DNA of 64,000 nucleotides, from positions 1,216,001 through 1,280,000 of the forward strand of contig OZ250186.1 of the NCBI GenBank assembly GCA_965238275.1, in the 5' to 3' direction. The notes under the pieces are model-generated. The model was not told the DNA's origin and made no database searches. It was given only the letters and a program-made list of their open reading frames with translations. A program made the translations under genes and the position numbers. Source of the DNA: Nitrosopumilus sp. (lineage in GTDB: Archaea > Thermoproteota > Nitrososphaeria > Nitrososphaerales > Nitrosopumilaceae). Below, one piece after another: positions 9,078-61,207 of this stretch; positions within the stretch are counted from its first letter, which is position 1, and each line of letters opens with the position of its first letter.

Positions 9078-9083
9078 TCTGCC

Positions 9084-10090: not shown

Positions 10091-10170
10091 GTCTCTTCCT
10101 TCATATCCTCTCTATTTATCGTTTACAAGACGCTTTTTTCGCCCTTTTATAGAAACTGGATCACAGGATC

Positions 10171-10464
10171 ATGACCACGCATTACGAGGTGCTGCGGCCG
10201 GTGGCCGGGGCCGATCTCGACGCCATTCCCTCCGTCGTGAAGGCGTTGAGGACGATCCCGGAAGACGGCATTATCGCGTTCAATATGTTCAAGGGCGTCA
10301 ACAAGAGCGCCGCGGTAAGGACTGTGGCGCACGCCTGCAAGGCCGGGATGCTCAGGAGGGTGTCGCCGTGTCTTTCATTCTGCCTAGTCGGTTCATGCCG
10401 CTCTGCCTCAGAGACGCGCTCTTTCTTCGGCTGGCTTCTTGAGAAGATCCATGTCCCAGATTAG
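10171..10464 (+). pseudogene. N-terminal fragment of a tyrosine recombinase paralogous to 19723..21507 (similarity over about the first 65 codons)
   Basis: HYEVLRPVAGADLDAI...AHACKAGM resembles YYEILRPVNNDDLSKV...RAASCGI; TATA-like TTTTATAG about 25 bp upstream. Confidence 0.6.
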
Positions 10465-10551
10465 ATAACCCACCCATGTCAACATCCGTTCCCACCAGAC
10501 TGCGTCGATTCCAACCGTAGCGACGCGCAAAAATCCGCAGCGTTCCAAAAA

Positions 10552-10615
10552 GCCCAAAAAAACGCGAGATTTTTGGGCAAAAAATGCCAAAAAAACGAGA
10601 AGTTTTTGGGCAAAA
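10552..10615. repeat. Two tandem palindromic units (about 33-bp period)
   Basis: GCCCAAAAA-aacgcgaga-TTTTTGGGC followed by GCCAAAAA-aacgagaag-TTTTTGGGC. Confidence 0.85.
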
Positions 10616-10915
10616 CCAGGCGCATGCCGCCTCCTTTTGCGCGGAACAGCGTTCGCTGTATGCCAATCTTGCGCGAGGAAACCCACGACGGGTTCCGCCG
10701 AGCCAATGACGATACCAGGCGTGCTTAAGATGTTTGAACGCGGCCCAAGAAAAATCCGCAAACAACCCCGAAATGGACAGTTTGGAAGGATCCTGGGAAT
10801 TGGTGAATTTGAGAAAACCAAATGGCCCCGCCTGCCAAGATGCAGTCCGCAATCAACGAGACGGACGCAAACGATTCCGCGTCCGGAATCTGTTGTTGGT
10901 GCCTTGACAATCCTT

Positions 10916-11500
10916 ATGAATCCGTACCGCATGCGAGCAGTGTTGAGCGAAGAAACACGCGAACGCCTGAAATGGATCAAAGACGAACATGAGAGAAAAG
11001 TAGCCGTCCTACTGGAAGACATAGGCCTTGATTTTGTAGATTATGACGTGAAAATTTTCGAACCGCCAAAGCCTGTAATAGGGGAGGTCGATCTCGTGTT
11101 CGAGTCAGGCAATACGCTGATTCTGGTGGAGGTGAGCGCTGGCAGGAACTCCATCAGCGATAAGCAGTGGGCCTTCTTCTCCAAATGGGCCAACGACCAA
11201 GCCATAAAGGCCTTGGTGGAAAAGATTGGCAAGCAATCGCATCCAATAACCCGGGTCCACTTCCATTTGAGGCCGCCCCCAAGCAACATGGGTGGGGCGG
11301 AAGCCGTGGGCGTGGCGAGGCCCGGCAGCAGAAACATGATATGCTACAAAGACGACTTCGATCGACTAACTGGCATGGTGGGACAAGACGGCGCTATGAG
11401 GGATGACTTCGTGCAGGCGCTGGCCGGCGATCCTGATTCCAGCAGAGACGCGCGTGGAAAACTCGGAATCAATATGGGGCTCGGCATGATTGATGTCTGA
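10916..11500 (+). CDS. Hypothetical protein with PD-(D/E)xK nuclease-like signature
   Basis: GEVDLVFESGNTLILVEVS; start uncertain (10916/10931/10940), upstream extension in ORF track looks non-coding. Confidence 0.55.
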   Translation: MNPYRMRAVLSEETRERLKWIKDEHERKVAVLLEDIGLDFVDYDVKIFEPPKPVIGEVDLVFESGNTLILVEVSAGRNSISDKQWAFFSKWANDQAIKALVEKIGKQSHPITRVHFHLRPPPSNMGGAEAVGVARPGSRNMICYKDDFDRLTGMVGQDGAMRDDFVQALAGDPDSSRDARGKLGINMGLGMIDV

Positions 11501-11742
11501 TAAATTCTAGTGATCTGATCAACAAGGTCTACCACTAAGGTTCGGATGCGGCCATCTCATTTTTGAGCAACATTATTGGGTACATGACACTTTTGAACAC
11601 CGTGCCAAAATGCGGCGGGATCGAACCTGGAGAAGATCCAAAAAACACACTTTTGAACAGGAAACGTTAGAGATCACCTAAATTTACCAGAGCCCAAAAC
11701 CCACCAACCAATGTGTGCTAGATCACCTTGTTTGAACAGAGC
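11494..11742. repeat. Composite non-coding element A with three copies of a 23-bp motif (AGATCA-N12-AGAGC)
   Basis: Copies at 11494-11516(-), 11671-11693(+), 11720-11742(+); also CACTTTTGAACA x2 and CTGGAGAAGATCC. Confidence 0.75.
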
Positions 11743-11950
11743 CGTCTTGTCGGTCCTGTCCACGATACTTTGACACGCTCTGGAGTTGTTCGTCATGCCG
11801 CATCTCGGGCGATTTTTTTGGTGGACATGAAGCCGTCTGTGACGTGCCTTATTGATCTGTTTGCGTTGAAAGTTTGCCTAAACGTGTCACGTTTGGTTCA
11901 TCTGTTTTTATAAAAACATTATATACACAACGTGTATACGGTATTACGTT

Positions 11951-13051
11951 ATGCTTGATATTGTGCTTGGTGGCGTCGTGGCCGCATTGACGGTGGTCTG
12001 CGTTTTGCTTTATGGAAAGAACACCAAACTAAAAACGCAATTGGATTTGGGCAATTCGCGGGAAGGCGTGTCGGACCGGTTCGAAGTGCTGGCATCTGAC
12101 GTGCTCAAGAAGAATGTGGAAGAATTCAAGACAAACACGGCAGATCCGATGGCAAAGTCGATGGAAAGCCTCCAAGCGACCATAACTACACTGAAGGAAC
12201 AAAACGCAAGCAACGCTGCTACGTTTCAGACCAGCATGGAGGCCATGAAGGATACCAACGAAAATCTGATGAAGGACACCAAGACGATTTCAGGCATACT
12301 GGGCAGCTCGCAGAAGCGCGGAAGGTTCGCCGAGGTAGGGCTGGAGCGCGTGTTCGAGATGTCGGGGCTTACGAAGGGCGTGAACTACTACATACAGCAA
12401 ACCGAGGACGGCAGGCGGCCTGACTTTGTAGTAAAGTTGTCCGAAGATCGACAAATAGCAATAGACTCAAAGGCGCCGTTGGACTCGCTGTGGAGGGCAC
12501 AGGAAGCCGAAGACGAGGCAACAAAGGCAGACGAGCTGGACAAGCATGCCAAATCCATCAGGGAACACGCCAAGAGCCTTTCCAAGAAAAAATACTCCGA
12601 GGGCGGTGGGATGATGGACTACGTGGTGATGGTGGTGCCTGAACACGCGCTGCTCCCGGCGCTGGACAGGGACGGCGGGCTTACAGAATACGCACTTGAG
12701 AACAACGTAGTGTTGGTGACGCCTGCCACCTTGATGGTAGTGCTCAACGCGGTAAACCTCATGTGGAAACAAGACGATATGGCCAAAGCCGTAAAGGTGA
12801 TAGGGAATCTTTCGACCGAGCTACATGCCAAACTGTCCAAGTTTGCGTCACACTACCAGAAGGTCGGGAAAGAACTGGACGGGGCAATCAGCGCTTACAA
12901 CTCAAGCGTGGGTTCTTGGGATCGCAGGCTGATGCCTGCCGTTGAAAAACTGGAAGACGCTGGCGCAAAAAGCGGGGACGTTCCTGCAATAGAAATAATA
13001 GACGGCAAGGCACGCGAATTGCTCCCGGTAAAAGAAGAGCGCGAGTCCTGA
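11951..13051 (+). CDS. rmuC: RmuC-family DNA recombination protein
   Basis: N-terminal TM helix, coiled coil, KRGRFAEVGLERV, RPDFVVKL, AIDSKAP, VLVTPATL; TATA-like TTATATA upstream. Confidence 0.9.
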   Translation: MLDIVLGGVVAALTVVCVLLYGKNTKLKTQLDLGNSREGVSDRFEVLASDVLKKNVEEFKTNTADPMAKSMESLQATITTLKEQNASNAATFQTSMEAMKDTNENLMKDTKTISGILGSSQKRGRFAEVGLERVFEMSGLTKGVNYYIQQTEDGRRPDFVVKLSEDRQIAIDSKAPLDSLWRAQEAEDEATKADELDKHAKSIREHAKSLSKKKYSEGGGMMDYVVMVVPEHALLPALDRDGGLTEYALENNVVLVTPATLMVVLNAVNLMWKQDDMAKAVKVIGNLSTELHAKLSKFASHYQKVGKELDGAISAYNSSVGSWDRRLMPAVEKLEDAGAKSGDVPAIEIIDGKARELLPVKEERES

Positions 13052-13237
13052 AATCCAAAGCATGCATAAACCGACGTCGCAATCATTCATGCAATCCTAT
13101 CAATACGGGAACATGACCTGGGGGTTATTGAATTGGCGATCCAGCATGCAGAATGATGCGGTTTGATTACGAGAGTGGAATCATAACTGCACGGCATTTC
13201 ATGAGCCAGAATGTTGACATTCTCTGCGGTTCTTCAT

Positions 13238-13393
13238 GCTCTGGTAAGTTTTCATGATCTGACTACCAAAATTTACCAGAGCCACTTGGCAGTAAGCTCA
13301 CTTTCGAACAGTCGATTCCGCAAAATTCTGGAGAAGATCCGTATATCTCGCTTTCTAGCAGCAAATTCTCCAGATCACCACAATTGAAGAGCC
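13238..13393. repeat. Composite non-coding element B, homologous to element A
   Basis: Motif copies at 13238-13260(-), 13260-13282(+, degenerate), 13372-13392(+, 2 bp short); CACTTTCGAACA 13299; CTGGAGAAGATCC 13328. Confidence 0.75.
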
Positions 13394-13409
13394 ACAACGG
13401 GCAGATCTG

Positions 13410-13482
13410 AGACATGATTCGTAATTAGAATCCCGGGCGGTCCGATGACCAGAAAAGATCAAGTACTGCCATTTCCAGTCCA
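13410..13482 (+). mobile_element. Orphan left end of the IS5-like element
   Basis: CTG|AGACATGATTCGTAATTAG...GATGACCAGAAAAGATCAAGT...CCATTTCCAGTCC matches 17764-17836. Confidence 0.85.
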
Positions 13483-13560
13483 ATACCGTACTGCCCAAAG
13501 ATAAGAAATACTTTACATCCGTCTGATTCCCAGATTCTTTTGACGCATGCCATAGTTCCA

Positions 13561-14022
13561 TCAATCAAAACGGAAGCCTATTTTGTCCCGCAACATCGCC
13601 CTTTTCTCGATGCTCTCGTAGACGGCCTTCCTTACGTCGTCTTTATCCATGGCGACTTTGCCTGCAACGATGGCATTGGCCAGATCCACCAATTGGGCGT
13701 CGGAAAGTCCATGGTACTCGTAATGCGCCTCGTTGACGGCAGTGTCCGGCGTTGTCCCGTCATCTGATGGATCGGGAAGAAAAGGGAGTCCGGCTATGAT
13801 CGCGTATGTGATTGGCCCCAATTTTGTGCGGGGGGCGCAGACAGCGACAGCTATGCGTTTTGCAGGAAGACTTGTTGACGTGGCATACACGGATAAGCCA
13901 TCATCGGGTTTTCCTTTGAGAATCGCCACCATCCTTGAGTTGAGTTTGGCGTCAATTGTAACACAAGCGCCATACTCCCTTACAACTGACGGGGTTACCA
14001 CCAGCACAAACCCGTCGTTCAT
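13561..14022 (-). CDS. Hypothetical protein
   Basis: 153-aa ATG ORF with protein-like composition; no recognised motif. Confidence 0.5.
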   Translation of the reverse strand: MNDGFVLVVTPSVVREYGACVTIDAKLNSRMVAILKGKPDDGLSVYATSTSLPAKRIAVAVCAPRTKLGPITYAIIAGLPFLPDPSDDGTTPDTAVNEAHYEYHGLSDAQLVDLANAIVAGKVAMDKDDVRKAVYESIEKRAMLRDKIGFRFD

Positions 14023-14197
14023 TTTTCATTATTTGGAAACTACGGGAGCAATATTCCTGCTACTTGCTTCCAAGATAAACTCTACTATCGGCGGCGAATT
14101 GTTCTGTGGAGACATGTATTTGGTCAATGTAAGCAGCATCTTCGTATCTTCTGCGTTGCCAACATTTTTCTCAAGCTTTTTCGTCTCCCTTGGCAAG

Positions 14198-14674
14198 CTA
14201 GCCAACGGCATTTAGCAACGGCCCTGTGTCGATGTTGCGGAATTCCCCATTTATGGCAGCCTTGGACAGCCAGTTTGTCATTGCCTCCTTCACGGCTTCG
14301 TTGGATTCTGTCGCGTATGCGTCCCTTATTATGTCGTGCCGTTTCAGGTCGTGCAGGGCATCGACGGCCTCGTTGCGGACGATCCAACCCGGATGCGATT
14401 GCAGCACTCGTTGGAGTATCTCAACTCTCTTTTCCAAATGTTCCTGCTCGGAGTATCCGCAAAAATAGACCGCCCTGTAAACCGAATCAAACCCCTTAAA
14501 GCTGGGATCGAATATGCCCCCTTCGATGGCGTCAAGCGCGTCTGCCCCGTGTCTTGCTACCGCCCTTTCCAACTCTGCATAGAATGGATGGGCTGCATAA
14601 TCAAAACAATCATTGCAGACAATGCGTTTATGCTCGCCAAATAACCTAATTATGTTTTCCTTGACACTATCCAT
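14198..14674 (-). CDS. Hypothetical helical protein (HEAT-like C-half)
   Basis: 158 aa; WIVRNEAVDALHDL...EAVKEAM; TATA-like TTAAATAT about 25 bp upstream. Confidence 0.6.
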   Translation of the reverse strand: MDSVKENIIRLFGEHKRIVCNDCFDYAAHPFYAELERAVARHGADALDAIEGGIFDPSFKGFDSVYRAVYFCGYSEQEHLEKRVEILQRVLQSHPGWIVRNEAVDALHDLKRHDIIRDAYATESNEAVKEAMTNWLSKAAINGEFRNIDTGPLLNAVG

Positions 14675-14707
14675 GTATTTTATTGATCATTCTTTCGATA
14701 TTTAAGT

Positions 14708-16491
14708 CAGTTAACGCAGAAGTAAGGCTTGCAGAATCCATGGCAGCCAGTAATCATGACCTTGAATGACCCTGCTGGTGTTCCTGCACGGCATCGTACG
14801 CAATCTGAATGTCCAAATTACATGCGTCCACTGCAGCATCCGCAGGATGGGAAAGACATCCTTTTCAGGGACAGATATCAGACGGTCCGACAGAATCTGT
14901 CCGGAAGACAGAACCGTTACGGCACGCGAGGACGCGGCAGGATTAATCCTGTTGGTTTCTAAAAAACCTGCACGGTCCCCGGATGATCATCGTGGCGTCC
15001 CGTCACGCAGCTACGGCGCACGTCAGGCGGCGGCTTTTGCCTGACCAGGTACCACGGAATGTTGTTTATCGGCCTGACCACCAGCACGTCGGTTTGCGTG
15101 ACTGCCCGGTATACGCGATCAGATTTCTGCAAACCCGAGGTCAGCCTGGCATTTGCGATTACCCACGTGTTGTACAGGATCAGGGTGTACAGGAAGCAAA
15201 GCGCCCGGACCGTCTCGTTCTTGCTGCGGGTTCTCGCCCTTTGCTTTTCTGCCATCCTGTAGCCTGTCTCTATCATCCACCTCCGGGCATAATAATCGAC
15301 GTTGATCCCCGGCATGTTCGTGGCAGAGGCAATGTATTTCTCCTCCGGCTTTTCGGGACTGCCCGTCTTTCTCTTTCTCTTGCGTTTTGTTATGATCATG
15401 GTGTACTCGGCATGATCGTGTTTGGATTTTGCTATGCGAAATCCCGATACTGCAAGGCGTCTCCCGCATGCAAACTCTTCGATGGCGCGCGTCACATTGG
15501 GGGTGTTGATGCAGGGCATGAGATACCTTGTGCCCATTCCGTCAAGTGTCCGGATCACGTCTGTTGAAAAGAACTCGCGGTCAAGCATGGCGACGCCTAT
15601 TCTGACCTTCTTTTCCAGGCACGCATCGACGGCCTTGCGCACGAAATCGGCAGTATCAGTCAGGGCAGGCATGGGAAACGCCCCCAGGGTCAGCTGGATC
15701 CTCCGGGTCACGCACTGTACCGTGATGCATCGCTCAAAGAGATGCGTTCCCCTTTTGGCCCTTGATCTTACAAGCTCTGCGCCGTGTTTGTGGTCCCAGC
15801 GCGGTATCAGGTGCATGTCAATGGCAACATTCATCCTCCTGTGGCCAAGCATGCCCAGATCCTCAAGCTGGCTTACCTGTGAGGATACCATTTCATTAAA
15901 TGACCGCATCAGGCTTTTCGAATCAACCCGGGAGCAAATGTCGCGCATCCACTCGCTGCACGGGGCGCGCCTGTGGGATCTGCCAAGCCCCCGCACGGCA
16001 GTCACCATCCTGCGCACGGCCGCAGCGTACCCCCCGATCGATATCCCGAGCACGGCTGCCATTGCCATGATTCTGTGAAAATCATCCGTCCCGTACGCCG
16101 CGTTGGGCCTTTTGGAGACTGGAAGGCTTGAATCAAACACGCGGGCCGCATCAGACGTCGTATCCTGGCGAACCCGGGGGTTGTTTTGCAGGGAGCGCTG
16201 CAGGTGGCCTGTCATGTCAGTCACTGCAGATACCACCCGGCAGGCACCGTGAAATGCCAATGTGCGTTCAAATGCTTAAATTCCAATTCCGCAAAGGCAT
16301 GCTGATGCGTGAGTCTGTCTATGTTGGTGCATTGACAGATTTTCACCATCAATTCTTTTAAGCAGCAGGCTCCCCGTATGTTGACTGCCTAAGCCTTGTC
16401 TGGGCGAGTTTATTTTCATATTTGCTGTAACGTGCCGCAAGACACTCCCAGATCATTGTATCTTAGTCAGGTCTTACTTCTGCGTTAACTG
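14708..16491 (-). mobile_element. ISH3-like (IS4 superfamily) insertion sequence, copy 1; transposase ORF 14959..16260
   Basis: Perfect 19-bp TIR CAGTTAACGCAGAAGTAAG; DDE motifs AIDMH, LDREFFS, YARRWMIETGYR; no matching target duplication. Confidence 0.85.
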
Positions 16492-16639
16492 ATAATACAG
16501 CCACGCTACCGTATAATGCTGTCCACACCCTCATCCAAAATGCACACAAGTCCAAAGATCATTAGCATTATGCACCCGAAAAGTTTTGGAATACAGATCC
16601 CTTCCACAACCAATGAATTTCAACAGTTGCCGGGATCCC

Positions 16640-17135
16640 GTATGAGTAGTTCGCCCCCTCCAAGCCCTCCTTGACTTGGAGCTTAACGCCAAGGCCAACA
16701 GGTACGTGACCAAGAAAAAGGCAGGCCCAAGGAAGGCCGGCAGGCCCAAGGGGCAAAAACCCACCATCGCATCGACCGCGTCGAGGAGATCGACTGCAAG
16801 GAATGTTGGTGTTGACTGTCGCGTCGCTGGAAGGGTTCCCGGCGCGGCAAAACACGCGCGCCGTTCATCAAACTTTGATGCGGCCATGACATAATCGCGT
16901 CAAGATCAGGCAGGCAGAGCGCATGCGTTGGATTTTGTGGCACGGATCATGAATTTTCAGGATCAAAGACGGGCACACGAGGATCGTCGCGGCCCACTGC
17001 ATAGACGCGGAGCTGCGCGGGCTGATGAACGAACCGTTTCGATGGGCACGGCACCTCCGGGAGGGATACTTTATGACCACTGCACGTGGACGGCATCGAG
17101 CCGGACAACAACGCAGTGGAGAGGGTCAACCATGG
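16640..17135 (+). pseudogene. Degraded IS66-family transposase remnant
   Basis: SSSPPSKP...RKAGRPKG N-terminal pattern and DGIEPDNNAVERVN at about 17089-17130, in broken frames. Confidence 0.6.
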
Positions 17136-17292
17136 CTACAGTTGAGGCATCATTTCAAATTTTCTTCATTTCCACTCCACGCATGGCTACTTTCAAAAAA
17201 TCATGTGCAGCATCCACTACGGGCAATGCGCGATTCTGACGTCGTGCCGGACAGTCATTCTGCGCGGTACTCTTGGCCCGTCGGGCCGTCCA

Positions 17293-19594
17293 CTACCGTC
17301 TCCTCCGCCGGGGCATCTTTCTTTTGAACGCCCGTGCCGGAGTCTCGAGGTTGTCCCAGTCAATGGACATGTGCGGCCAGTCGTGGTTGTACCACTCCAT
17401 GAACCGTTCCACGGGATCCCTTGCAGGCGCGACGCAAAACGGCCCTCCCACGTGGGAGTCTTCTGACGCGCCGCGCTTGGTCTTGGCAGACGATGCGGCC
17501 TCGAACCGGCGCAGCTTGCGCTGCATCTCCCCGTGCAGGCGCTCCAGCTTGCCGTTTGTCTGCGGGTGCCGCACGCGCGCCAGCATGTGCCTGATTCCAA
17601 GCTCGACTAGCCTCTGCTCGAACCTGGAGGCTCCCTTCCTCTTGGCCTCGGACTCTGTGGCGTAGAACCGGGTGCCGCGGTCCGTCAGGATCGATGCGGG
17701 CTTGCCGTGGTTTTTTATGGCCCCGCTGAGCACCTTCAGGGCGTTTTCGGTGGTCGCCTCCTGAGACTTGATTCATAATTGGCATCTTGGGACTGCCTGA
17801 TGACCAGAAAAGATCAAGTGCCACCATTTCCAGTCCCATGTCATGTTGACACTTGGAAAACTGAGAGGAAACGTCAGAATGTTCAAGGCGTGTACCGGGA
17901 TGCCCCTCCAGCAGTTTGATATTTTGCTTGCAAACGTGGAGAAGGCATACCCTGACGGGGAGACAAAGAGGCTCTCCCGGAAATCCCGGAAGCGCGGGAT
18001 CGGCGCCGGACGCCGGCATTCGCTGGACATGCCAAAACGGGTGCTTGCGCTGCTGGTCCATTATAGGACGTACGCCACGCAAGACGTCCTTGCAGCACTG
18101 TTCAAAGTCGGCCAGGCCACGATATCCCGTTCCATTGATCAGGTTGCCCCGACCGTGAGGCAGTCGGCTCCAATCCCGGCAAAAATCTGCGCAGAGTCCA
18201 GAAAGACATCTGGCATGGACGAACTCGAGGGCATGTTTCCCGGACTGCCGTGCCTGACTGACGCCTCCGAGCAGCAGATCCAGAGGCCAAAACGCAAGGA
18301 CATGGAAAAAGTCCCACTATTCGGGCAAGGCCCACGGACGCACCTCCAAGGTGCAGTACACGACAACGTGGGACGAGTTGATAGTCCACAACGCCAGGCA
18401 CTCCCAGGGATCCAGGCATGACGCAAAGGTCTACAGGATGAGGCATCCCACGTTTCCCGCGGATCTGCAGTATGCCGGAGAGCCTTCCGATGAACGCCAC
18501 CGGAAGCGCACGGCCCTGAGGCACTATGGCGACAACGGGTGCGTCGGGGCGGCAAAGGCAGCCAAGGGCATCGGCATGGTGCTGCCAATCAAGAAAAAAC
18601 CCGGCTTGGAGCTTACCCCCCTGGAGAAAGGCTACAACAAAACCCACTCCAAGATCCGGGTGCGGGCGGAACACGCCATCCGCAGGGTCAAGGCATTCAG
18701 AATGATGGGCGGGGTGTACCGGAACCCGCTGAAAAAACACGATCGAGCCAACTACACCGTGTGCGGGCTGGTCAACCAAAGGGCTCTCCTGAAGAGGGCC
18801 GGAATCTGCTGAGCGCGGCATGCCAAAATGCAGGCAAGTGCGTTTGGTTTCTAATTACGGATCAAGTCTCTGGAACACCCCTAAGCCGGTCACGAAGCGC
18901 GAGGCGTCGTCCTCGTAGCACAGGAACCGCCTGCCGTCGTCAAGCTGTTTGTAGTCGGTGTGCCGCATCGAGTTGGGGCGCTCGCGCTCGTAGCGGATCC
19001 GCTTGCGGCGCCGGCTCTTCTTTGGCTGGGTGTCTGCAAAATCGGCACCCTTCAATATCCTGTGCAGGGCGTTGTGCGGGATATGTATTCCGGCAAGCGA
19101 CCTTATGATGCGCTCCGGATGCTGCCCCGCGGATCCCGTCTGACGCGGCCGATAAAACCGCGGAATGATCCCGCCGCCCGGGCGCGCACTTTTTGGGCCT
19201 GCCTGCCTGCCCATGGGGGCGCGGGGCATGCGATCTTGTCCTCGTCCTTGTACCTCTTCCACAGCTCTTGGATCTTGGACCTACACCCCCATGCTTGCAG
19301 CGACTCCTTGTTGCGGGAGTCCTTGCGCTTCTCTTGGATGATCCATTCGACTTTGGACCGTTCAATCTTTTTCATTACTCGCACTCTCCGTCTTCCCATA
19401 TGGCGCCACACGGCCGAGCGTCTCCGCCGGCGGCGGACCCACGCACCGTCGTTTCCAGTAAGGGACAGGCTGACTGCATTTCTCAGGGATTTTGCACGCG
19501 ATGCCATGCCGGCGAGAATGTCTGTCATGGGGCATGTCCACCCCAGGCCGGAGCCTCATGTGGGGTGTGGGTGAACAACTTTTGGGACTATACA
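17293..19594 (-). mobile_element. IS481-family element, copy 1 (frameshifted, interrupted by IS5-like element); distal end not located
   Basis: End TGTATAGTCCC at 19594; RYERERPNSMRHTDYK, YEDDASRFVT, ILTDRGTRF, HPQTNGKLERLH, WYNHDWPH. Confidence 0.88.
17764..18869 (+). mobile_element. IS5-family (DDE_Tnp_4/ISL2-like) element, copy 1; transposase frameshifted at the A-run near 18306-18310
   Basis: TIRs AGACTTGATTCATAATT / AATTACGGATCAAGTCT; 3-bp target duplication CTG; removal restores IS481 frame GVFQEATT; DASEQQIQRP, RVRAEHAIRRVK. Confidence 0.9.
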
Positions 19595-19722
19595 CAAAAC
19601 CGTACGTTCGTCCATTGTAACGAGGACACGATGAAATTCGTCAACTTTTGACCGCTTCACTGAACAAAGTTTGAAAACCTGGCGGATGGGCTATAAATAT
19701 TGAAAACGTGTAATGAAGGGCA

Positions 19723-21507
<1,785 letters not shown>

Positions 21508-22257
21508 TTTTTTGACATGGAACCGGGCCCCCGCGCAGGACCGTGCCAAGATCATCATCCCTTGCCCTGCCTGCCTGCCTGCCTGCCTGATGCCTGCCTG
21601 ATGCCCGCCGGCGTGGCAATCGCCCCTGCCCTTTGCGCGGCGCCGGGCGCCGCCGGTCCTTTTGTCCGGCTTTGCGCCGATGCTCCCTGCAACGGCAGCC
21701 CATGTGACGCCCTTTGCCTCCTGCAACCCTGCCGCGGGATCCTGGACCTGCCTGGGGGCGACAGCGCAAAGATCAGCGGGCCTGGCCACCTGCCGGTCTT
21801 TTTTGGCCGCCTGCCCTTCCATCATCCCCGCTTTCCCCCAGTCCTGCAATCCTTGACTCGGAACCTTCATCAGGCATGATGCAAACCGTGGGAAACGATG
21901 ATCCAAATTGGAATGGAGAGAAATTTGAGCAGATGCTCAAAAATAATTTCAAAAAATTACACAATTACACAAAAATATGTTCCATATAATGTATTACGGC
22001 GCCTAGTTTGGTGCATTTGTATCCCTGCCGGCAAGCCGTCCCGGAACCGCCCCGACTGCTACGCACGGTTTTGGCCGGGCCGGTCCTGCACGGGACTCAT
22101 GAAAGGTTATTTATGGAAGTATGTAGCCAAATTATACATTATGATTAGGCAAAACATCCAATCTATGGTGCGTAATACATTTTACGCACCACGTATTCGC
22201 AATGAAAGCGCACGTCGGAAGCCGCGCCGCTACGCGGGGGGGAAGGGGAATAGTTGC

Positions 22258-24135
22258 ATGACGGTGCCCAAGGCCGTGCTGCTCTCAGTCTTGGTTGCCG
22301 CGGCGGTATTCTCCGCGCTCGGCCTTGCGGATCAGTTCCAAGTCGGCGGCATTGACGCAGGCAGCATGGTGCCAGGGCACGCCTTTGCACAGGCAACGAC
22401 AGATGAGACGGCACCGAAGTTCTCCTCTGCCGCGCTTGACCGCGGCACCGGCGTGCTGGTGGTAACCTTTGACGAGGTGATAGACGCCGGCAGCATCGAT
22501 CCTGCCAAGTTCCACGTAAGGGCGCAGGACGATTCCACCGGCTACGTCACGCTGTCTATAGCGGAGCTTGACACGGATGCCGATTCTGCAACGGTCGCAT
22601 TCACGCTGAATCTTGCCAACCTCGCGACGGTAAACTTGCTGAGCGTGCCGGAACTTGCGATCGATCCCTCGGTCGTCTCTGACTTGAACGGAAACGGGTT
22701 CGTGGGCACCATTGACGTGACTAGCGCCTCCTACACGGGCAATTTTTCAGTCGGATCCCAGGATGACACCCCCACCGGCATCGCCTTCTCCCCCGACGGA
22801 ACAAAGATGTTCGTGGTCGGAGATGGCCGCGACAGCGTGTTCGGGTACGCGCTGTCCGACCCCTTTGACGTGACCGGCACCATCACCCACACGGGCAGTT
22901 TTTCAGTCGGATCCCAGGATGCCATCCCCACCGGCATCGCGCTCTCCCCCGACGGAACAAAGATGTTCGTGGTCGGAGGCAACAACGACAGCGTGTTCGG
23001 GTACGCGCTGTCCGACCCCTTTGACGTGACCGGCACCATCACCCACACGGGCAGTTTTTCAGTCGGATCCCAGGATGCCATCCCCACCGGCATCGCCTTC
23101 TCCCCGGACGGAACGAAGATGTTCGTGGTCGGAGAAGAACACGGCTCCGTGTACGAGTACGCGCTGTCCGACCCCTTTGACGTGACCGGTAACATTACCC
23201 ACACGGGCAGTTTTTCAGTCGGATCCCAGGATGACACCCCCACCGGCATCGCGCTCTCCCCCGACGGAACAAAGATGTTCGTGGTCGGAGATGGCAACGA
23301 CAGCGTGTTCGGGTACGCGCTGTCCGACCCCTTTGACGTGACCGGCAACATCACCCACACGGGCAGTTTTTCAGTCGGATCCCCCCTTGAATACCCAATA
23401 TCGATAAACGGCCACGGGTACCTGCTGGGAGGCGCCCGGAACACGCTGGAGCCGCAGACGGTGCGCGCAGGCGAGGAGACCACCATCACGTTCACCATAT
23501 ACGACATCTCGCCGATAACGCACTTTACGATGTACATGAACCTGCACGGTTCTGACGACCAATATTCTGACAGCGACACCTACGTCAGGTACGACGCCGG
23601 CAGCGTCCTGACAGCCGACCCGCACGGCCTCATGGAATCATCTGCCGTCACGATCCAGGCCGACGGAGACAGGCAGACGGCCACGTTTACCATCACGTTT
23701 GCAGGCGCCATGGAGCAGACCAACATCGTGGTACGGCTGTGGAACGCCGACCTGTCATTGCTGAACGTGCAGGTGCTGGACGCCTTTGAGGTGGTTGCCA
23801 CGCCCGAGTCGGCAGCTACCACCACCACCACCATCCCCGCCCCTGATGCAATCGTGGATCCTGAGCCCGGCGATGATGCCACGGCCGAATCCGGGGTAGG
23901 CCCCGGATCCGCGGCATCGCCCGGAACCGCGATGGACGTGCTGAAGAGGTGGGCAGGCTTTGCACCCGAGGTTGCCACCGACGCCGAGCTGCTCGAAGCG
24001 CTGGGCTTGGACTATCCGGGGGCCGACATCCCCGGCTGGGTGATGACCGAGCTGGGCCCGCTGGTGGCCAAGGGGCACGTCACGATGAGCGAGTTTATCG
24101 CGGCGCTGGAGTACGTGCTGGGGGAGGACGCGTAG
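22258..24135 (+). CDS. Surface protein 1: leader, four 52-aa beta-propeller-type repeats, shared C-terminal module
   Basis: Hydrophobic leader to GHAFAQ; 156-bp repeats (PTGIAFSPDGTKMFVVG) at 22747-23370; IPGWV...EFIAALEYVL end; start uncertain (22141/22165/22258). Confidence 0.85.
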   Translation: MTVPKAVLLSVLVAAAVFSALGLADQFQVGGIDAGSMVPGHAFAQATTDETAPKFSSAALDRGTGVLVVTFDEVIDAGSIDPAKFHVRAQDDSTGYVTLSIAELDTDADSATVAFTLNLANLATVNLLSVPELAIDPSVVSDLNGNGFVGTIDVTSASYTGNFSVGSQDDTPTGIAFSPDGTKMFVVGDGRDSVFGYALSDPFDVTGTITHTGSFSVGSQDAIPTGIALSPDGTKMFVVGGNNDSVFGYALSDPFDVTGTITHTGSFSVGSQDAIPTGIAFSPDGTKMFVVGEEHGSVYEYALSDPFDVTGNITHTGSFSVGSQDDTPTGIALSPDGTKMFVVGDGNDSVFGYALSDPFDVTGNITHTGSFSVGSPLEYPISINGHGYLLGGARNTLEPQTVRAGEETTITFTIYDISPITHFTMYMNLHGSDDQYSDSDTYVRYDAGSVLTADPHGLMESSAVTIQADGDRQTATFTITFAGAMEQTNIVVRLWNADLSLLNVQVLDAFEVVATPESAATTTTTIPAPDAIVDPEPGDDATAESGVGPGSAASPGTAMDVLKRWAGFAPEVATDAELLEALGLDYPGADIPGWVMTELGPLVAKGHVTMSEFIAALEYVLGEDA

Positions 24136-24444
24136 CCAACAACCTGGTCGGGAGACATGATGATGCTGACAAGACCGCGACTGCCTGCCTGCCTGCAGGG
24201 ACGCGCCGGGCCACTCTTGAAGGAGGAGAGGGGGGGGGGGGTTGGTACCCGACGTGAAACTCGTTGAATTGCACGACGGCCGGGGAATCGTGCCCGGCGG
24301 TGCATGGCGCCGTCATATTTTCAGGCCATGCGGTACATGGCGCCGGATACGTAAAGCTGAGGGCCCACACGCCGGCGCGCACAGCATGCGGCCGGGCTTT
24401 GGCACGACGCCGCGTACGCGGACGGCACCGCGTATCGCCCAAGG

Positions 24445-27400
24445 GTGGGGGCCTTGATAAACGACAACACTCCTCCCGGCAAACCGGATCCGTCAACCCT
24501 TGACGCTTTCGGATCCTCCGTGGCAGGCAATAGGCGGCCTGACGGCGACGGCACCGGACTGTCCGGGAACAGGCGTGGCGGCTCTGCGCCGCCGATCCGG
24601 CGGCAGGCCGCATTGGTGCTGGTAGCCGTGCTGCTCTCAGTCCTGGTTGCCGCGGCGGCATTCTCCGCGCCCGGCCTTGCAGACAGGTCCCAAGTCGGCG
24701 GCATTGGCGCGGGCGCGCCGGCAGGCATGCTGCCTGCGTGGGTGCCAGAACGCGCCTTTGCGCAGACCTCCCAGGATCCGCCGACGTTTGTCTCGGCCAC
24801 GCTTAACAATGGCACCGGCCTGCTGACGGTGATATTTGACAAGACGATAGACGTCGCGCAGATCGATCCCGCAAAGTTCCACGTGAGGGAGGCCGGGACG
24901 CCTGCCCACACAGTTACGCTCTCGACACCGGAGCTTGACACTACTGCGAACTCTTCGACGATCACCTTCACGCTCAACTCCGCCCACCTGGCTGCCGTGA
25001 ACGAGCTGACTACGCCCGAGCTCGTAATAGATTCGGGCGCCGTCACTGACACGAACAGCAACGCGTTCGGGGCCACCTTTGACGTCTCCACGGCCTCGTA
25101 CGAGCGCCAGTTTTCAGTCGGATCCAATGACACCAGCCCCACAGGCCTCGCCTTTGCCCCCGGCGGCATCAAGATGTTCGTCTTGGGAGACGAAAACGAC
25201 AGCGTGTACGAGTACGCGCTGTCCACGGCATTTGACATCTCCACGGCCTCGTACGAGCGCCAGTTTTCAGTCGGATCCAATGACACCAGCCCCACAGGCG
25301 TCGCCTTTGCCCCCAGCGGCATCAAGATGTTCGTCTTGGAAGACCAAACCGACAGCGTGTACGAGTACTCGCTGTCCACGGCATTTGACGTCTCCACGGC
25401 CTCGTACACGGACTTGTTTTCAATCACCGCTACAGTTACCTCCCCAACGGACGTCGCCTTTAACCCCGTCGGAACAAAGATGCTCGTCACGGAAGACCAA
25501 AACAACCGCGTGTACGAGTACGCGCTGTCCACGGCATTTGACGTCTCCACGGCCTCGTACGAGCGCCAGTTTTCAGTCGGATCCAGTGACACCAGCCCCA
25601 CAGGCCTCGCCTTTGCCCCCGCCGGCACCAAGATGTTCGTCTTGGGAGACCAAAACGACAGCGTGTACGAGTACGCGCTGTCCACGGCATTTGACGTCTC
25701 CACGGCCTCGTACGAGCACCAGTTTTCAGTCGGATCCAGTGACACCAGCCCCACAGGCCTCGCCTTTGCCCCCGCCGGCACCAAGATGTTCGTCTTGGGA
25801 GACCAAAACAACCGCGTGTACGAGTACGCGCTGGGCTCCTCCTTTGACCTGACGCTGACCGAGGAGGGCAACCGGAGGCCGACTGCCGATGCAGGAGGCC
25901 CGTACCAGCCCGTAGGCGAGGGGGACACGGTCACGCTGAACGGCACCGGCTCGTCTGATCGCGACACCGGCACCACCCTGATGTACTTGTGGAATCACAC
26001 CGGCAGCCCGGCCGTCACGCTGACCAACCCCACGACCGCGTCCCCGACGTTCACCGCGCCGGAGGTAGAACCGCCAAGCACCACGGTGAGGTTCACCCTT
26101 ACCGTATCTGACGGGAGTCTGAACCACACCGACACGGTCATCATCACGGTCAGAAACGTGGTCAAGGAACCCGTCGCCGACGCCGGCGATGACTTGGAAG
26201 TCGGCGAGAATAGCAGGGTAACCCTGTCGGGTCCTTCTGCAACCGACCCACAAAACGACTTCCTGACGTATCGGTGGACGCAAGCCCCGGCAGATGCGGG
26301 AGTGGTATTCGACAACTCCACTTCGCTGCAGCCGACCATCACCGTGCCTGCCGTGGACGCGGACACCACCATAACCCTCACCCTGACTGCCCGCGACGGC
26401 GGCAGCAATGAGGGGACTGACTCGCTTGCCCTTTTGGTAAGAGAGACGGGCACGGCGTTCATCACCACGTGGCGCACCACCGCTCCAAGCGAGTCCATAA
26501 CCATCCCTGGTACCAGCTCGTACCGCGTCATCTGGGGCGACGGCGCGGCAGACAACGAAACCAACGAGGCGACGCACGAGTACCCTAACGCCGGCACCTA
26601 CCGGGTCGTAATCACCGGCGGCCTTGAGGCGATTCGCCTGCACGACAACGCGGCCAACGCAGCCAAGCTCGCCTCGATAGAACAGTGGGGCAACACCTCC
26701 TGGACCACCATGGAGAACGCATTACGTGGCGCATCCAACATGGTCTACAACGCAGGTGATGCCCCCGACCTGTCCCGAGTCTACAACATGTCCCGCATGT
26801 TCGTCGGCGCCTCCGCCCTCAACGGCAACCTCTCCGGCTGGGACACCTCGAGCGTCACCGACATGAGATCCGTGTTCTACAACGCCACCGCCTTCAACGG
26901 CGACATCTCCGGCTGGACCACGTCGTCTGTCACGACCATGCACGCCATGTTCGCCGGCGCCTCCGCCTTCAACGGCGACATCTCCGGCTGGACCACGTCG
27001 TCTGTCACGACCATGCGCGGCATGTTCAACGTCGCCACCGCCTTCAACGGCACCCTCTCCGGCTGGACCACCTCGAACGTCACCGACATGAGCCGCTTGT
27101 TCGACGGCGCCTCCGCCTTCAACGGCGACATCTCCGGCTGGGACGTCAGGCGCGTTACCGACATGGCGCAAATGTTTTTCGGCGCCTCCGCCTTCAACGG
27201 CGACATCTCCGGCTGGACCACGTCGTCTGTCACGACCATGCGCGGCATGTTCCAGAGCGCCTCCGCCTTCAACGGCGACATCTCCGGCTGGACCACCTCG
27301 GACGTCACCGACATGGCCGGCATGTTCCACAGCGCCACCGCCTTCAACGGCAACATCTCCGGCTGGAACGTCTCGTCTGTCACCACCATGCGCGCCATGT

Positions 27401-30400
27401 TCAACGTCGCCACCGCCTTCAACGGCACCCTCTCCGGCTGGACCACCTCGAACGTCACCGACATGGCCGCCATGTTCGCCGTCGCCTCCGCCTTCAATCA
27501 GGATCTCAACGACTGGGACACCTCGTCTGTCACGACCATGAGTGACATGTTCGCCCGCGCCTCCTCCTTCAACCGGGACCTCTCCGACTGGGACGTCAGG
27601 CGCGTTACCGACATGGCGCAAATGTTTTTAGGCGCCTCCGCCTTCAACGGCGACATCTCCGACTGGAACACGTCGTCTGTCACGACCATGCGCAGCATGT
27701 TCCAGAGCGCCACCGCCTTCAACCAAGACCTCGACGACTGGACCACCTCGGACGTCACCAACATGGCCGGCATGTTCAACGCCGCCACCGCCTTCAACGG
27801 CAACATCTCCGACTGGGGCACCTCGAGCGTCACCGACATGGCATTCATGTTCTCAAATGATGATATACACAACGACACCGCCTTCAACCAGAACCTCAAC
27901 GGCTGGGACGTCTCGTCTGTCACCACCATGCGCGCCATGTTTGCCTATACCTCTGCATTCAATCAGGATCTCAACGACTGGGACACCTCGTCTGTCACCG
28001 ACATGGCATACATGTTCGACGTCACCGCCTTCAACGGCGACATCTCCGACTGGGACGTCTCGTCTGTCACCAACATGACATACATGTTCCGGCAAACCGA
28101 GGCCTTCGACCGGAACCTCGGAAAATGGTACACCACGCCTGGCGCCGTCACCGTAAACCCCACTACCCTCCCCGGACAGGTCACCACCCTGTCCGCCCAG
28201 AACGCCATCTTGGACGGACACAGCCCGACCTACGCGATAGGGACCGGCCACGACTCGATCCTCTTTGAGATCACCGGCGGCAACGTCCTGAACATGACTG
28301 AGGCCAATCCCGCCTGCACCCCCTGCACAGTCAACGTGACTGCCACGGGAACCCTCTTTGGGAGCGACAGCAGCTACAGGCTCATCTCGGTGAATCTGGT
28401 CGACGAATCCCACTTCGTCACCATCTGGGAGACGACTGCTGCAGACGAGGAGATAAGATTCATCAGCCACGGCGAGTTCAACGTGGACTGGGGCGACGGC
28501 ACATCAGACAATGACCTCACCGGAGACAGGCAAACACGCACGCACACGTATGACCGCGTCGACACGTACACCGTGACAATGTCAGGCCAACCCGAGCGAA
28601 TCTACTCGACTTCTGCCAACATCCGCTCCATCGAGCAGTGGGGTGACATCGGGTGGACGAGCATGAACTCCATGTTCTATGATGCTGCCAACTTGGTATC
28701 CCGCGCAACCGACGTACCGGACCTCTCGGGCGTGGCATCCACAGCCGATATGTTCGCCGGCGCCTCCTCCTTCAACGGCGACCTCTCCGGCTGGGACGTC
28801 TCGTCTGTCACCGACATGGTCTCCATGTTCGAAGGCGCCTCCGCCTTCAACGGCGACATCTCCGGCTGGAACGTCTCGTCTGTCCGCTACATGGGAAACA
28901 TGTTCGACGGCGCCTCCGTATTCAACCAGACCCTCAACGGCTGGGACACCTCGAGAGTCACCACCATGCTCCGCATGTTCGCCGGCGCCTCCGCCTTCAA
29001 CGGCAACATCTCCGGCTGGGACGTCTCGTCTGTCACCGACATGGTCTCCATGTTCGAAGGCGCCTCCGCCTTCAACGGCGACATCTCCGGGTGGACCCCC
29101 TCGAGCGTCACCCAAATGGGAAGCATGTTCTGGCGCGCCACGGCATTCAACGGCGACATCTCCGGGTGGGACGTCAGACGCGTCACCACCATGCCCAACA
29201 TGTTCTTCGGCGCCACGGCATTCAACGGCGACCTCTCCGGGTGGATCCCCTCGAGAGTCACCACCATGAACGGCATGTTCGCCGGCGCCTCCTCCTTCAA
29301 CGGCGACATCTCCGGCTGGAACGTCTCGTCTGTCCGCTACATGGGAAACATGTTCAACGGCGCCGCCTCCTTTGACCAGCCCCTCAACGGCTGGAACGTC
29401 TCGTCCGTGACTGACATGTCCAGCATGTTTGACGGCGCCGAAATGTTCCATCAGAACCTGGGCAACTGGTACGTCGTGATAGATAACACTACCATCGACC
29501 GATCCGAAATAACGCCGGCAGCCGTCCGCGGCATAGCCGCGCAAAACGGCTTCCTCGGGAACCACAACGCCACGTACGGCATCGGCCCCGGCGGCGACTC
29601 GGACCTCTTTGAAATCTCGGCTGACAACATGCTCCGCATGGTCTCGCAGGGCAGCAGGGACTCATACACGGTCAACATTACCGCCTCGGGCCAACACGTG
29701 TTCGAGGGCGAAAACAACTGGCGCGAGGTAAGTGTGATGCTGATCGGCTCCCACGACCCCGACGCGTTTGTCACCACTTGGAAGACTGGCAGTAACGACG
29801 AGTCCGTAACCATCCCGGGCACCGGGAGCTACATGGTCGACTGGGGCGACGGCACCGCCGGCACCTCCGAAGCGGACGACGCGACCCACACGTACAACGA
29901 CGCCTATACCTACAGGGTCTCGATCACCGGCGACCTTGAGCGAATAGACCTGAGCGGCGACCCGGACAACGCGGACAAGATCGTGTCGATAAACCAGTGG
30001 GGGACGATCTCTTGGACCACGATGGAGGATGCCTTTGCAAATGCCAGAAACATGCAATACAGCGCAACCGACGCCCCGAACCTCTCGGGCGTGGCGTCCA
30101 CAGGCGATATGTTCAACGGCGCCTCCTCCTTCAACGGCGACATCTCCGGGTGGGACGGTCTGTCACCGACATGAACAACATGTTCGGCGCCACGGTCAAC
30201 CGACATGTCACCGACATGAACAACATGTTCAACGGCGCCACGGCATTCAACGGCGACATCTCCGGGTGGGACGTCTCGTCTGTCCTCAACATGAACGGCA
30301 TGTTCAACTACGCCATAGCCTTCAACGGCAACATCTCCGGGTGGGACGCCTCGTCTGTCCTCAACATGGGCCAGATGTTCAGCAGCGCCACGGCATTCAA

Positions 30401-35753: not shown

Positions 35754-35875
35754 AACACGATGCTTGACGGTGACTCCTCCCTTGATTGCAACCCTGGCAG
35801 CTGGCGTGTTGTGCAGGATCATGGGCAAAAAGGCACCCGGCATGATGGGAACGATGGGGGGGGGGAGATGACAAG

Positions 35876-53800: not shown

Positions 53801-54818
53801 GCCATGGACGCCCTCCTGTCGTACAACGCGTCTGCGCCGCTTGGGCCGGTGGGTGGTTCGGTAGCGCTTGGCTACCCGTCGCCGCCCCAAACAAATAGGT
53901 GCCTGCCGGGCACCAATGCGGGCCTTGACAGCGCCGCAGATGCGTTTGACTACCCGCTCCGGATAAACTCAGCCGAGTACGCGCTTGGCGGGCTGGCCAA
54001 CACGCTCGTGCCGCACGAGATAACGTCGGGGGAGACCGCCCTGGTCGGGTTTACGGCCTACGAGTCTACGGAGATTGTCCATTTTGCGCTGTACCTTAAC
54101 CTGCGCGACGACTCGGCATCGTACGCCGAGAGCGACACGCACGTCGCGTACAACCACGGAAAAGTCACGGTATCCGATCCGCACGACTACGTCGCGCACG
54201 CCTCGATCACCGTGGAGCCCGACGGGGCGCTGCCGTACAAAAAGACGATCCGCGTTGTGGTGGAGTTCAACGGCGGCGGCGGGGACGGCCACGCCGGGGT
54301 GAGGCATGGGCGTGACCAACATGGTCGCGCGCATGTGGGACTCTCATGGCGGCCTCACGAGCATACTCGTGTTTGACGCGCTTGACGTGGTTGGCAGGAC
54401 CGTGTTGGACCCCGAGCCGGGAGCCCCGACCGGTACGCTGCCGCCCTGGATGGACCCGGAGCCTGGCCAGACCGGCGCGCTGCCGCCCTGGATGGACCCG
54501 GAGCCTGGCCAGACCGGCGCGCTGCCGCCCTGCGTGGACCCCGAGCCCGTGCTGGAACTCGAGCCCGGCGTGGATCCCGAGCCCGGCGTCGCCGCGGGGG
54601 GCTTTAGCGCGTCCGAACTGCAGACGCTCCGGGACTGGGGCGGCTACTCGTCTGTGTACCTCGACGATGCGGGGTTCCTGGAGGCGTTCGGATTCCAGGG
54701 TGCGTCAGTCCCCGGCTACTTCAAGGGAATGGCAAAGTGGTTCCTAGACGGCACGCTGGACAGGCAGGACCTGATTAATGCGCTGTCATACCTGGAAGGA
54801 CGGGGGGTGCTGGGATAG
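35876..54818 (+). CDS. Giant surface protein 3 (6166-aa ORF plus frameshifted tail 54306..54818): S8 subtilase, six DUF285/BspA blocks, FN3, about 20 PKD-like repeats, Ig/DUF5011-like domains, C-terminal module
   Basis: S8 motifs VAVIDS, HGGLVA, SAGNSG, GTSFSAP; 25-aa repeats; PVVDAGEDQ repeats; tail MGVTNMVARMWD matches [12 protein letters not shown] of protein 2. Confidence 0.88.
49127..52217. repeat. Eleven consecutive, apparently identical 285-bp units (95-aa PKD-like domain); preceded by a 576-bp duplication (48260-49411)
   Basis: Unit starts at 49127, 49412, 49697, 49982, 50267, 50552, 50837, 51122, 51407, 51692, 51977; last unit diverges at its end. Confidence 0.95.
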
Positions 54819-54819
54819 C

Positions 54820-55395: not shown

Positions 55396-55396
55396 C

Positions 55397-61049: not shown

Positions 61050-61207
61050 TGTCCGTCTTCAACCATGTGTCTTAATCCTCATGATCTTTAGCTTTTTCGG
61101 TCTGGATGATGGTGTATGGTGGTGCTCACTGTAACATGGTAGGCAGGATTATGCAATAAGCTACCATATACATAAGTTCTAATAGTCATATTGATCTGTA
61201 TGTGGTA

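Follow-up and report, generated by a model that had tools for sequence, protein, structure and literature searches.

Repeat elements bracketing rmuC in a Nitrosopumilus genome are probably degraded end modules of a gene-carrying, non-autonomous transposon family

The stretch analysed here (the window) comprises 64,000 nucleotides of Nitrosopumilus sp. contig OZ250186.1 and corresponds to positions 1216001-1280000 of its genome, G000, a single contig of 2,216,668 bp with 52.7% G+C. In the window, an rmuC gene is bracketed by two elements, A and B, built from copies of a 23-bp motif, and an earlier note had read them as candidate gene-cassette boundaries or recombination sites. Our analysis indicates that A and B are probably independent, degraded copies of the terminal module of a non-autonomous transposon with IS6/IS26-like ends, units of which carry genes elsewhere in the genome. 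The bracket of rmuC itself is a fossil or chance arrangement within a strain-specific island of ~58 kb. Comparisons were made with a genus set of 121 genomes; genomes other than G000 are cited as G006, G017, G056, G061, G075, G131, G136, G137 and G138.

The 23-bp motif is the terminal inverted repeat of a dispersed family

Reading of the sequence confirmed all six copies of the motif that the earlier note had listed, at 11494(-), 11671(+), 11720(+), 13238(-), 13260(+) and 13372(+). The first is a degenerate AGATCACTAGAATTTATCAGACA on the minus strand, those at 11671, 11720 and 13372 are AGATCACCTAAATTTACCAGAGC, AGATCACCTTGTTTGAACAGAGC and AGATCACCACAATTGAAGAGCC, and the two at 13238 and 13260 abut to form a 45-bp palindrome. 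The motif is enriched: a pattern search allowing up to 3 mismatches recovered three of the six in the window, against 0.00 expected from 100 shuffles, and the remaining three had 4-7 mismatches. In the whole genome, 59 matches to the 23-mer were found at up to 5 mismatches, at more than 25 places round the chromosome, so that the pairing of A and B round rmuC is not unique.

The matches represent the terminal inverted repeat (TIR) of a family scattered over the genome. The TIR consensus, read from the outside in, is GGCTCTG[GT]TAAATTYTRGTGATC (~23 bp). Many matches stand as (-) then (+), 177 bp apart, and delimit modules of ~200 bp with 23-bp TIRs; others lie 22 bp apart and form 45-bp palindromes of two abutted TIRs, about 16 of which are solo in G000. 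The family accordingly takes the form of a lone TIR, a 45-bp palindrome, or a ~200-bp module, in which three CACTTTTGAACA boxes and one GGATCTTCTCCAG box are also present. An nhmmer search with a profile of nine modules recovered 10 full copies (E <= 2e-54; element A included), one divergent full copy and many pieces. The copies lie mostly in strain-specific islands among insertion sequences (IS).

Being short, TIR-bounded and multi-copy, the modules share these traits with miniature inverted-repeat transposable elements (MITEs). The open reading frame (ORF) lists held no transposase inside modules, and, although small frames overlap some copies, the modules appear to be non-coding. They further resemble classical MITEs and MITE-flanked composites in their target duplication, in their clustering in variable regions and, presumably, in their dependence on a transposase acting in trans. 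They differ in that only cargo-enclosing pairs had duplications, single copies of 45 or 200 bp having none, and in that the smallest form consists of two abutted TIRs of 45 bp in all. The scan of the genome and its relatives thus identified the motif as the end of a MITE/IS-type element, a result that the earlier note had named as one speaking against its own proposal.

Among the 121 genomes, the TIR was present at up to 2 mismatches in 22, and the reversed pattern in none. At up to 3 mismatches, G137 had 43 matches and G138 had 12, with 0 for the reversed control. An exact-pattern scan of a genome contig collection returned 13 stretches, ten of them in two archaeal metagenome-assembled genomes (MAGs) and one on a Poribacteria-labelled contig; of the two other bacterial stretches, one had no profile match and the other matched only over a 22-nt repeat (E 0.004). 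Related records that carry the repeat include Nitrosopumilus sp. and Cenarchaeum sp. MAGs. The pattern had 0 matches in a viral contig collection and two isolated matches, without a module, in a metagenome contig collection. The Poribacteria-labelled record, CBDAOT010000002.1 19127-19948 (L050), belongs to a bacterial sponge-symbiont bin and holds a 178-bp module (model 24-201) adjoining the apparent C-terminal part of an IS630-type transposase; this represents either cross-domain transfer or a binning error. Literature searches on Cenarchaeum and sponge MITEs and transposases, and on IS6 MITEs in archaea, found no description of the module family, subscription journals lying outside their coverage.

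Elements A and B are degraded copies of the module

The elements round rmuC, in window coordinates, are as follows.

10371..10503, + strand: remnant of a related right-end module with CTTGAGAAGATCC, at the left edge of the island, upstream of a nuclease-like gene
11493..11694, + strand: element A, a full ~200-bp terminal module (nhmmer with the nine-copy profile, model 3-201, E 9e-58)
11720..11743, + strand: extra right-type TIR, 25 bp after element A (sequence reading and TIR scan)
11951..13051, + strand: rmuC, between elements A and B (Pfam RmuC PF02646, E 2e-74)
13237..13283, no strand assigned: element B part 1, a 45-bp palindrome of abutted left- and right-type TIRs (nhmmer model 1-80, E 5e-07)
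13284..13394, + strand: element B part 2, a decayed right half-module (nhmmer model 133-199, E 2e-05)

Element A consists of a degenerate left TIR with 6 mismatches to the consensus, a second inverted arm that makes up a 45-bp palindrome with it, CACTTTTGAACA boxes, a GAATCTGGAGAAGATCC-type box and a right TIR; its identity to the nine other full copies is 75.6-84.1%. The layout of a module, a spacer of ~24 bp and a further TIR recurs in G138 (L055), where the spacer carries CCAACCAAT and is followed by AGATCACCTGATTTGAACAGAGCC. In element B, the palindrome, which belongs to the set of about 16 in G000, is an inverted repeat with 15-nt arms that are 93% complementary, and part 2 holds TCACTTTCGAACA, CTGGAGAAGATCC and a degenerate right TIR with 7 mismatches, model positions ~81-132 being missing. 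Since element B matches the profile in two pieces, it is a decayed, internally deleted copy. Part 2 resembles a short subfamily found at genome positions 46-182 and 1117188-1117315. Collectively, elements A and B are both degraded and are not sister copies.

The structural features on which the earlier note had based its reading were also borne out. The repeat finder located CACTTTYGAACA boxes in both elements, as ACACTTTTGAACA at 11587 and 11647 and as TCACTTTCGAACA at 13298, and showed that A and B have a common 58-nt register. CTGGAGAAGATCC begins 44 bp ahead of AGATCACC in each (starts 11627 and 11671 in A, 13328 and 13372 in B). The remnant proposed near 10441 was identified as CTTGAGAAGATCC at 10438-10450, and the stop of the nuclease-like gene is indeed overlapped by element A, the TGA of ORF 10637-11500 falling within A's left repeat. 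At least 7 places in G137 are 77-79% identical to window 10371-10460. A little further on, at 10525-10612, lie two 33-bp tandem units (AAAAAGCCCAAAAAAACGCGAGATTTTTGGGCA-like), which resemble a conserved stretch of ~130 bp upstream of the '23-201' module subfamily.

Pairs of TIRs move with the enclosed genes at six loci

Target duplications were assessed by comparing the 8 bp outside each left-type TIR with the 8 bp outside each right-type TIR lying 40-8000 bp downstream (77 pairs). The flanks matched at offset 0 in six of the 77 pairs, five perfectly and one at 7/8. Shifted-flank controls matched in 28 of 8316 tests, corresponding to ~0.26 expected per 77. All six units show the 8-bp direct target repeat of the IS6/IS26 family, and they span 0.95-4.8 kb. 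Their coordinates in the G000 genome and their cargo, assigned by Pfam, are listed below.

672574-673524, 951 bp: A+T-rich cargo with small ORFs
708592-713380, 4789 bp: TnpB IS, two modules, and UbiA-like and UbiE-type genes
1110135-1113604, 3470 bp: HEPN/nucleotidyltransferase pair and an IS
1948532-1951945, 3414 bp: IS and an ABC ATPase
1948325-1953068, 4744 bp: encloses unit 1948532-1951945
1986442-1987689, 1248 bp: PAPS reductase

Exact empty sites were found for two units. Unit 672574-673524 corresponds to a single GTAGTGTC in G136/G137. In the case of unit 1986442-1987689, an IS66-type IS of G000 is split by palindrome, PAPS reductase and palindrome, and the copies of this IS in G136 are uninterrupted, with a single CATGTCTG. 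Unit 708592-713380 is absent from the syntenic place in G017. A seventh composite, at ~981997-983207, is an insertion relative to G017, with a 9-bp duplication immediately beyond another degenerate repeat. Flank BLAST revealed no paralogous empty sites inside G000.

The bracketing copies were mutual nearest relatives in 5/6 pairs. They stand in direct orientation at 710372/713118 and in the palindrome pairs 1110136/1113559 and 1986443/1987644, and in inverted orientation at 1948325/1952872 and 982023/982973. Joint movement of outward-facing TIRs is thus shown at six loci other than rmuC. The gene-cassette idea of the earlier note survives in that the family brackets single or few genes and moves them as units; it does not survive in its mechanism, which is transposition, and it is unproven for rmuC.

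Cargo of the second unit was also found in other species. G000 710535-713316 (L018) is 99.1% identical to G138 L078 6613-9394, over a background of ~65-70%, and G000 710990-713137 is 98.9% identical to G017 L033 3902-6050, at a non-orthologous site and over a background of ~82-86%. The shared cargo of 2.1-2.8 kb comprises a UbiA-like gene, an unknown gene and a UbiE-type methyltransferase gene. Since cargo identity of 99% at non-orthologous sites contrasts with backgrounds of 65-86%, recent interspecies transfer is indicated.

In the mechanism that we propose, the ~23-bp TIR would be the recognition unit, and any two outward-facing TIRs could be moved together with the intervening DNA, leaving an 8-bp (sometimes 9-bp) target duplication. 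The family would then act like compound or pseudo-compound transposons carrying passenger genes, with the transposase supplied in trans; the best candidate source is an IS6-like IS of 1.69 kb. The rmuC bracket would be a unit that has eroded with age, or else the product of two independent insertions into a graveyard of mobile elements.

Several observations accompany these units. The PAPS-reductase cargo at genome 1986514-1987359 has a weak BrxP match (E 1.9e-10). The ends of the TnpB IS (genome 708632-708709 and 710217-710369; L018 3633-3710 and 5217-5369) are joined without the gene in G075 and G056 (86-91%), and these appear to be end-only derivatives of an IS200/IS605-type element; ARAGORN found no tRNA at these ends. 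IS copies end 1-5 bp from several palindromes, and the idea that palindromes serve as IS targets was considered and dropped, one case being that of a unit inserted into an IS.

The module ends point to the IS6/IS26 type

The accessible part of PMC8477213 gives, as conserved positions of IS6/IS26 TIRs, GG at 1-2, G7 flanked by T (TGT at 6-8) and G10. The module TIR has GG at 1-2 in most copies and holds T6-G7; T8 occurs only in the GTT variants, the commonest form having G8. TIR variant GGCACTGTT equals the IS26 TIR, as printed in that part of the source, at 9/9 first positions. The IS6 family is further characterized, in the accessible part of PMC7986276, by 8-bp target repeats, two known MITEs, long zinc-finger members and pseudo-compound transposons.

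The candidate helper, the 1.69-kb IS6-like IS, has five full copies in G000 and encodes a 381-aa transposase with an N-terminal zinc domain. The best NCBIfam match of this protein is IS6 NF033587 (E 7.5e-24, profile 1-202 of 202); with Pfam DDE_Tnp_IS240 it scores 27.2 bits against a cut-off of 27, and five places in G000 pass. The IS and the modules have in common a GG[CT]TCT terminus and a subterminal box of 13-17 nt. The GGATCTTCTCCAG box lies 25-55 nt inside GG[CT]TCTG termini in the modules, in the 1.69-kb IS and in two other small cargo elements. The IS6-like IS and its relatives have TIRs (GGTTCTCCTGCAAA...) similar to the IS26 repeat given in the accessible part of PMC8477213. An IS6-like transposase was found in 21/22 TIR-positive and 26/99 TIR-negative genus genomes, and the IS66 control in 8/22 and 7/99, respectively. 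Because of the TIR features, the duplication length and the common subterminal box, the module ends point to the IS6/IS26 type, and they are probably moved in trans by the IS6-like transposase. The elements are probably new non-autonomous variants of IS6-type ends.

As far as the accessible parts of the two sources go, the likeness to IS6/IS26 thus extends to a short TIR starting with GG and holding T-G at 6-7, an 8-bp duplication, MITEs, genes carried between repeat copies, and a transposase with an N-terminal zinc domain, long zinc-finger forms being known (PMC7986276). The system differs in that the flanking repeats are 45-200 bp long and lack a transposase, instead of being full IS copies, in that the module TIR of ~23 bp comes with extra internal boxes, and in its host, an archaeon of Nitrosopumilaceae type, whose lineage the accessible part of PMC7986276 does not name.

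A number of observations weigh against this interpretation. Position 10 of the module TIR is A, in place of the G conserved in IS26-family TIRs (PMC8477213, accessible part). The candidate helper's own TIR (GGTTCTCCTG...) differs from that of the modules, its transposase scores 84.6 bits with NCBIfam IS6, below the cut-off of 125, and target duplications of the IS and its relatives measure 9 bp, in contrast to exactly 8 bp in three cargo units. No autonomous element with the exact module TIR was found among the 16 IS families of G000, whose ends were inspected and none of which starts with GGCTCTGGTAAATT. Kinship, genome size and assembly quality confound the co-occurrence of transposase and TIR. 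The flanking copies of two units are inverted, a misfit with the IS26 cointegrate rule in its strict form ('invariably direct repeats', PMC7986276, accessible part), and in the 77-pair flank test solo palindromes and single modules had no duplication of their own. Round rmuC, no target duplication was found in the 2 x 4 left-right TIR combinations at offsets up to 2 bp, element B is the module least similar to A in the module pair comparison, and A-rmuC-B was always intact in the contigs of 4 runs (3 samples, 2 studies).

Other candidate helpers were rejected. IS630 has TIR GTAGGGGCCAGAGCAATCCGATCACC and TA flanks and contains two short words in a different order, and the IS200/IS605-type element (the TnpB IS, 27 copies) does not fit units that have TIRs and duplications. 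No recognisable TIR was seen near a divergent IS240-type ORF at 1776924-1777952. Other small elements, with GGTTCTGTAAC... termini and the GGATCTTCTCCAG box 25-28 nt inside, were noticed at genome 1020510-1021700 and near 1082089 and 1173432; one of them carries a 177-aa gene whose product reads as a secreted protein. They are likely to be sister non-autonomous families.

Possible roles of the family and present status of the rmuC bracket

A broader reading, which we put forward tentatively, is that the modules and palindromes may be the archaeal counterpart of IS26 translocatable units minus the transposase, shuttling single genes between co-resident sponge-associated Nitrosopumilaceae, and that 10371-13394 may be an eroded array produced by targeted insertion beside existing copies. 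If so, the family would amount to a transposase-driven gene-cassette system, with quinone-pathway genes, a HEPN/MNT pair, PAPS reductase, an ABC ATPase and perhaps rmuC as cargo.

IS6/IS26-style mobilisation is best known from antibiotic-resistance plasmids. The present findings would extend it to non-autonomous mini-elements in Nitrosopumilaceae, in which gene-sized passenger units have ends that may be no larger than two abutted 23-bp repeats and show clean target duplications. Cargo that is 99% identical in archaeal species with 65-85% identity elsewhere offers a concrete route of gene exchange among symbiotic ammonia-oxidising archaea. The rmuC bracket itself is ordinary mobile-element debris and gives no sign of a new recombination system.

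A-rmuC-B could itself be mobile, now or recently, as a pseudo-compound transposon or IS26-style translocatable unit that delivered rmuC to the island and is still able to excise as a ~1.7-kb circle; we consider this doubtful. Its architecture is like that of the proven units, with TIR-bearing elements flanking one gene, and rmuC is accessory, being found in 3/121 genus genomes. Three right-facing modules (the 10371-10503 remnant, A and B) alternate with two co-oriented genes as in IS26-type arrays, which carry no internal duplications according to the accessible part of PMC8477213. Furthermore, CATGATTG to the left of A resembles CATGATTC 19 bp to the right of B at 7/8 positions by eye, with an estimated chance of ~0.02 over the offsets examined. 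These points are outweighed by the missing duplication at every canonical end, by the erosion of the outer TIRs (6 mismatches in A, 7 in B), and by the status of A and B as the least similar module pair, unlike 5/6 proven pairs. No second or near-identical rmuC was found in the 121 genus genomes, in five named relatives (no DNA-level relative in G137, G138, G131, G061 or G006) or in the metagenome contig collection, where none of 136 pattern matches was confirmed as a close relative. The rmuC circle or empty site that the earlier note had envisaged did not appear either: no joint across rmuC occurs in the contigs of the 4 runs, which are blind to rare circles and empty sites. The row of remnant, gene, A, gene and B in one orientation looks like an IS26-type array and also like piled-up debris. 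The evidence leads to the conclusion that A-rmuC-B is a fossil or chance bracket, and elements A and B are probably inactive now.

Recombination-site and regulatory readings

That the elements are site-specific recombination sites, either attC-like or attachment sites of the nearby tyrosine recombinase, with crossover at the centre of the 45-bp palindrome, is very improbable. Single modules and solo palindromes without target duplication would agree with such sites, as would direct near-identical repeats round cargo, which would fit Campbell-type integration. Two breakpoints fall at the palindrome centre, in that the cargo shared with G017 ends in CTAGTGA and the copy at 92757 starts with AGATCACC; the 92757-type start, however, marks a subfamily with its own conserved upstream sequence and is not an independent break. 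Six units with 8-bp duplications of unrelated target, two of them with exact empty sites, carry the signature of a transposase and not of a recombinase. The nearest tyrosine recombinase (19723-21507) lies 6 kb off and scores 37 bits to XerC (cut-off 335) and 29 bits to XerA/integron integrase (cut-off 220). The suggestion of arm and core sites for this enzyme fails, its 7 paralogues lying ~2-32 kb from the nearest element and none adjacent to one. tRNA scans detected no tRNA gene in the window or in locus L018, and a tRNA-linked integration site is therefore not indicated.

Integrons, archaeal examples of which are reported in the accessible part of 10.1101/2022.02.06.479319, share with the present family gene-sized units, imperfect palindromic repeats and varied accessory genes. 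Here, by contrast, an integron integrase, attI and a one-directional array are all absent, no cassette array lies beside an integrase, the units carry 8-bp target duplications, and the repeat forms the end of a transposon instead of folding as a single-strand site. Neither an attC-type fold nor its core was found, and the elements have no Rfam match and a weak consensus fold (-10.8 kcal/mol over 205 columns). The integron-like reading of the earlier note was accordingly abandoned.

It is scarcely credible that the repeats have a regulatory or structural role in the host as DNA or RNA, for instance as promoter or terminator modules, REP/BIME-like repeats, iterons or a small RNA gene. The conserved boxes within diverged spacers would suit such a role, the A/T-rich TTTA stretch of the TIR could mimic an archaeal TATA box, and one internal helix of 7 pairs covaries modestly (85.7% paired; 4-8/500 shuffles reach it). 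Nevertheless, the covariation term is only -1.5 kcal/mol, and, by the tool's own note, covariation of this level is reached in 5-25% of related alignments that are free of constraint. Rfam gave no family at E <= 1 for window 9000-15000. Insertion polymorphism with target duplications signifies mobility, the location of most copies among IS in strain-specific islands fits a host function poorly, and about 60 copies dispersed over the chromosome exclude the iterons that the earlier note had offered as an alternative. The helix joins alignment columns 51-60 with 122-133 (window ~11543-11552 with 11612-11623), spans two CACTTTTGAACA boxes and keeps its pairing through two-sided changes in 5 pairs; its covariation may reflect subfamily structure.

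The island and the genes beside the elements

The transposon-derived elements round rmuC lie at the left edge of an island. Synteny is lost at window ~10124 in 59/60 other genus genomes (60/61 with the window's own), and in the close relative G017 it returns at the window equivalent of ~67963. Further features of the window are as follows.

10124..64000, running beyond the window end, no strand assigned: strain-specific island of ~58 kb (synteny break and resumption)
10637..11500, + strand: nuclease-like ORF, its stop codon within element A's left TIR and its conserved part starting at ~residue 101
11786..11900, no strand assigned: stand-alone fragment from one end of an ISH3-type IS, lying between A and rmuC (flank BLAST)

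The island contains elements A and B, rmuC, IS copies, the tyrosine recombinase and giant surface-protein genes. The nuclease-like ORF has no Pfam match and weak YraN-type matches (E 0.001). Whether element A cut this gene was examined with a G136 homologue, which has 53% identity over 159 aa, terminates shortly beyond the aligned region and does not reach the insertion point of A. The ISH3-type fragment matches 1786233-1786349 (85%) and sites adjoining paralogues of the window's DDE transposase, and it has many 80% matches in G137 and G138. RmuC also matches the PADLOC model of reverse-transcriptase-associated RmuC (E 8.5e-45). Pfam results for the ORFs neighbouring rmuC included no reverse transcriptase, and RmuC is therefore not read as part of a defence system.

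The archaeal gene content of the window includes a CTP-dependent riboflavin kinase, LysX and DUF357 (Pfam). Two giant ORFs lie in the island, at window 29997-35753 (1918 aa, with five DUF285 stretches and an Ig-like domain) and 35876-54376 (6166 aa), and their internal repeats explain much of the self-similarity at genome 1254611-1269121. G000 is rich in IS, with nearly 300 repeated intervals of at least 300 bp and with IS5/Harbinger-like, TnpB, four IS66 groups, IS481-like, IS4/ISH3-like, IS630 and IS6-like families. Several IS types, including window 14708-14900 and IS copies elsewhere in the genome, are 96-99% identical between G000 and G136/G137 over a background of ~88-94%, which suggests ongoing IS exchange or very recent bursts; the IS6-like transposase is 99% identical at 6 places in G136.

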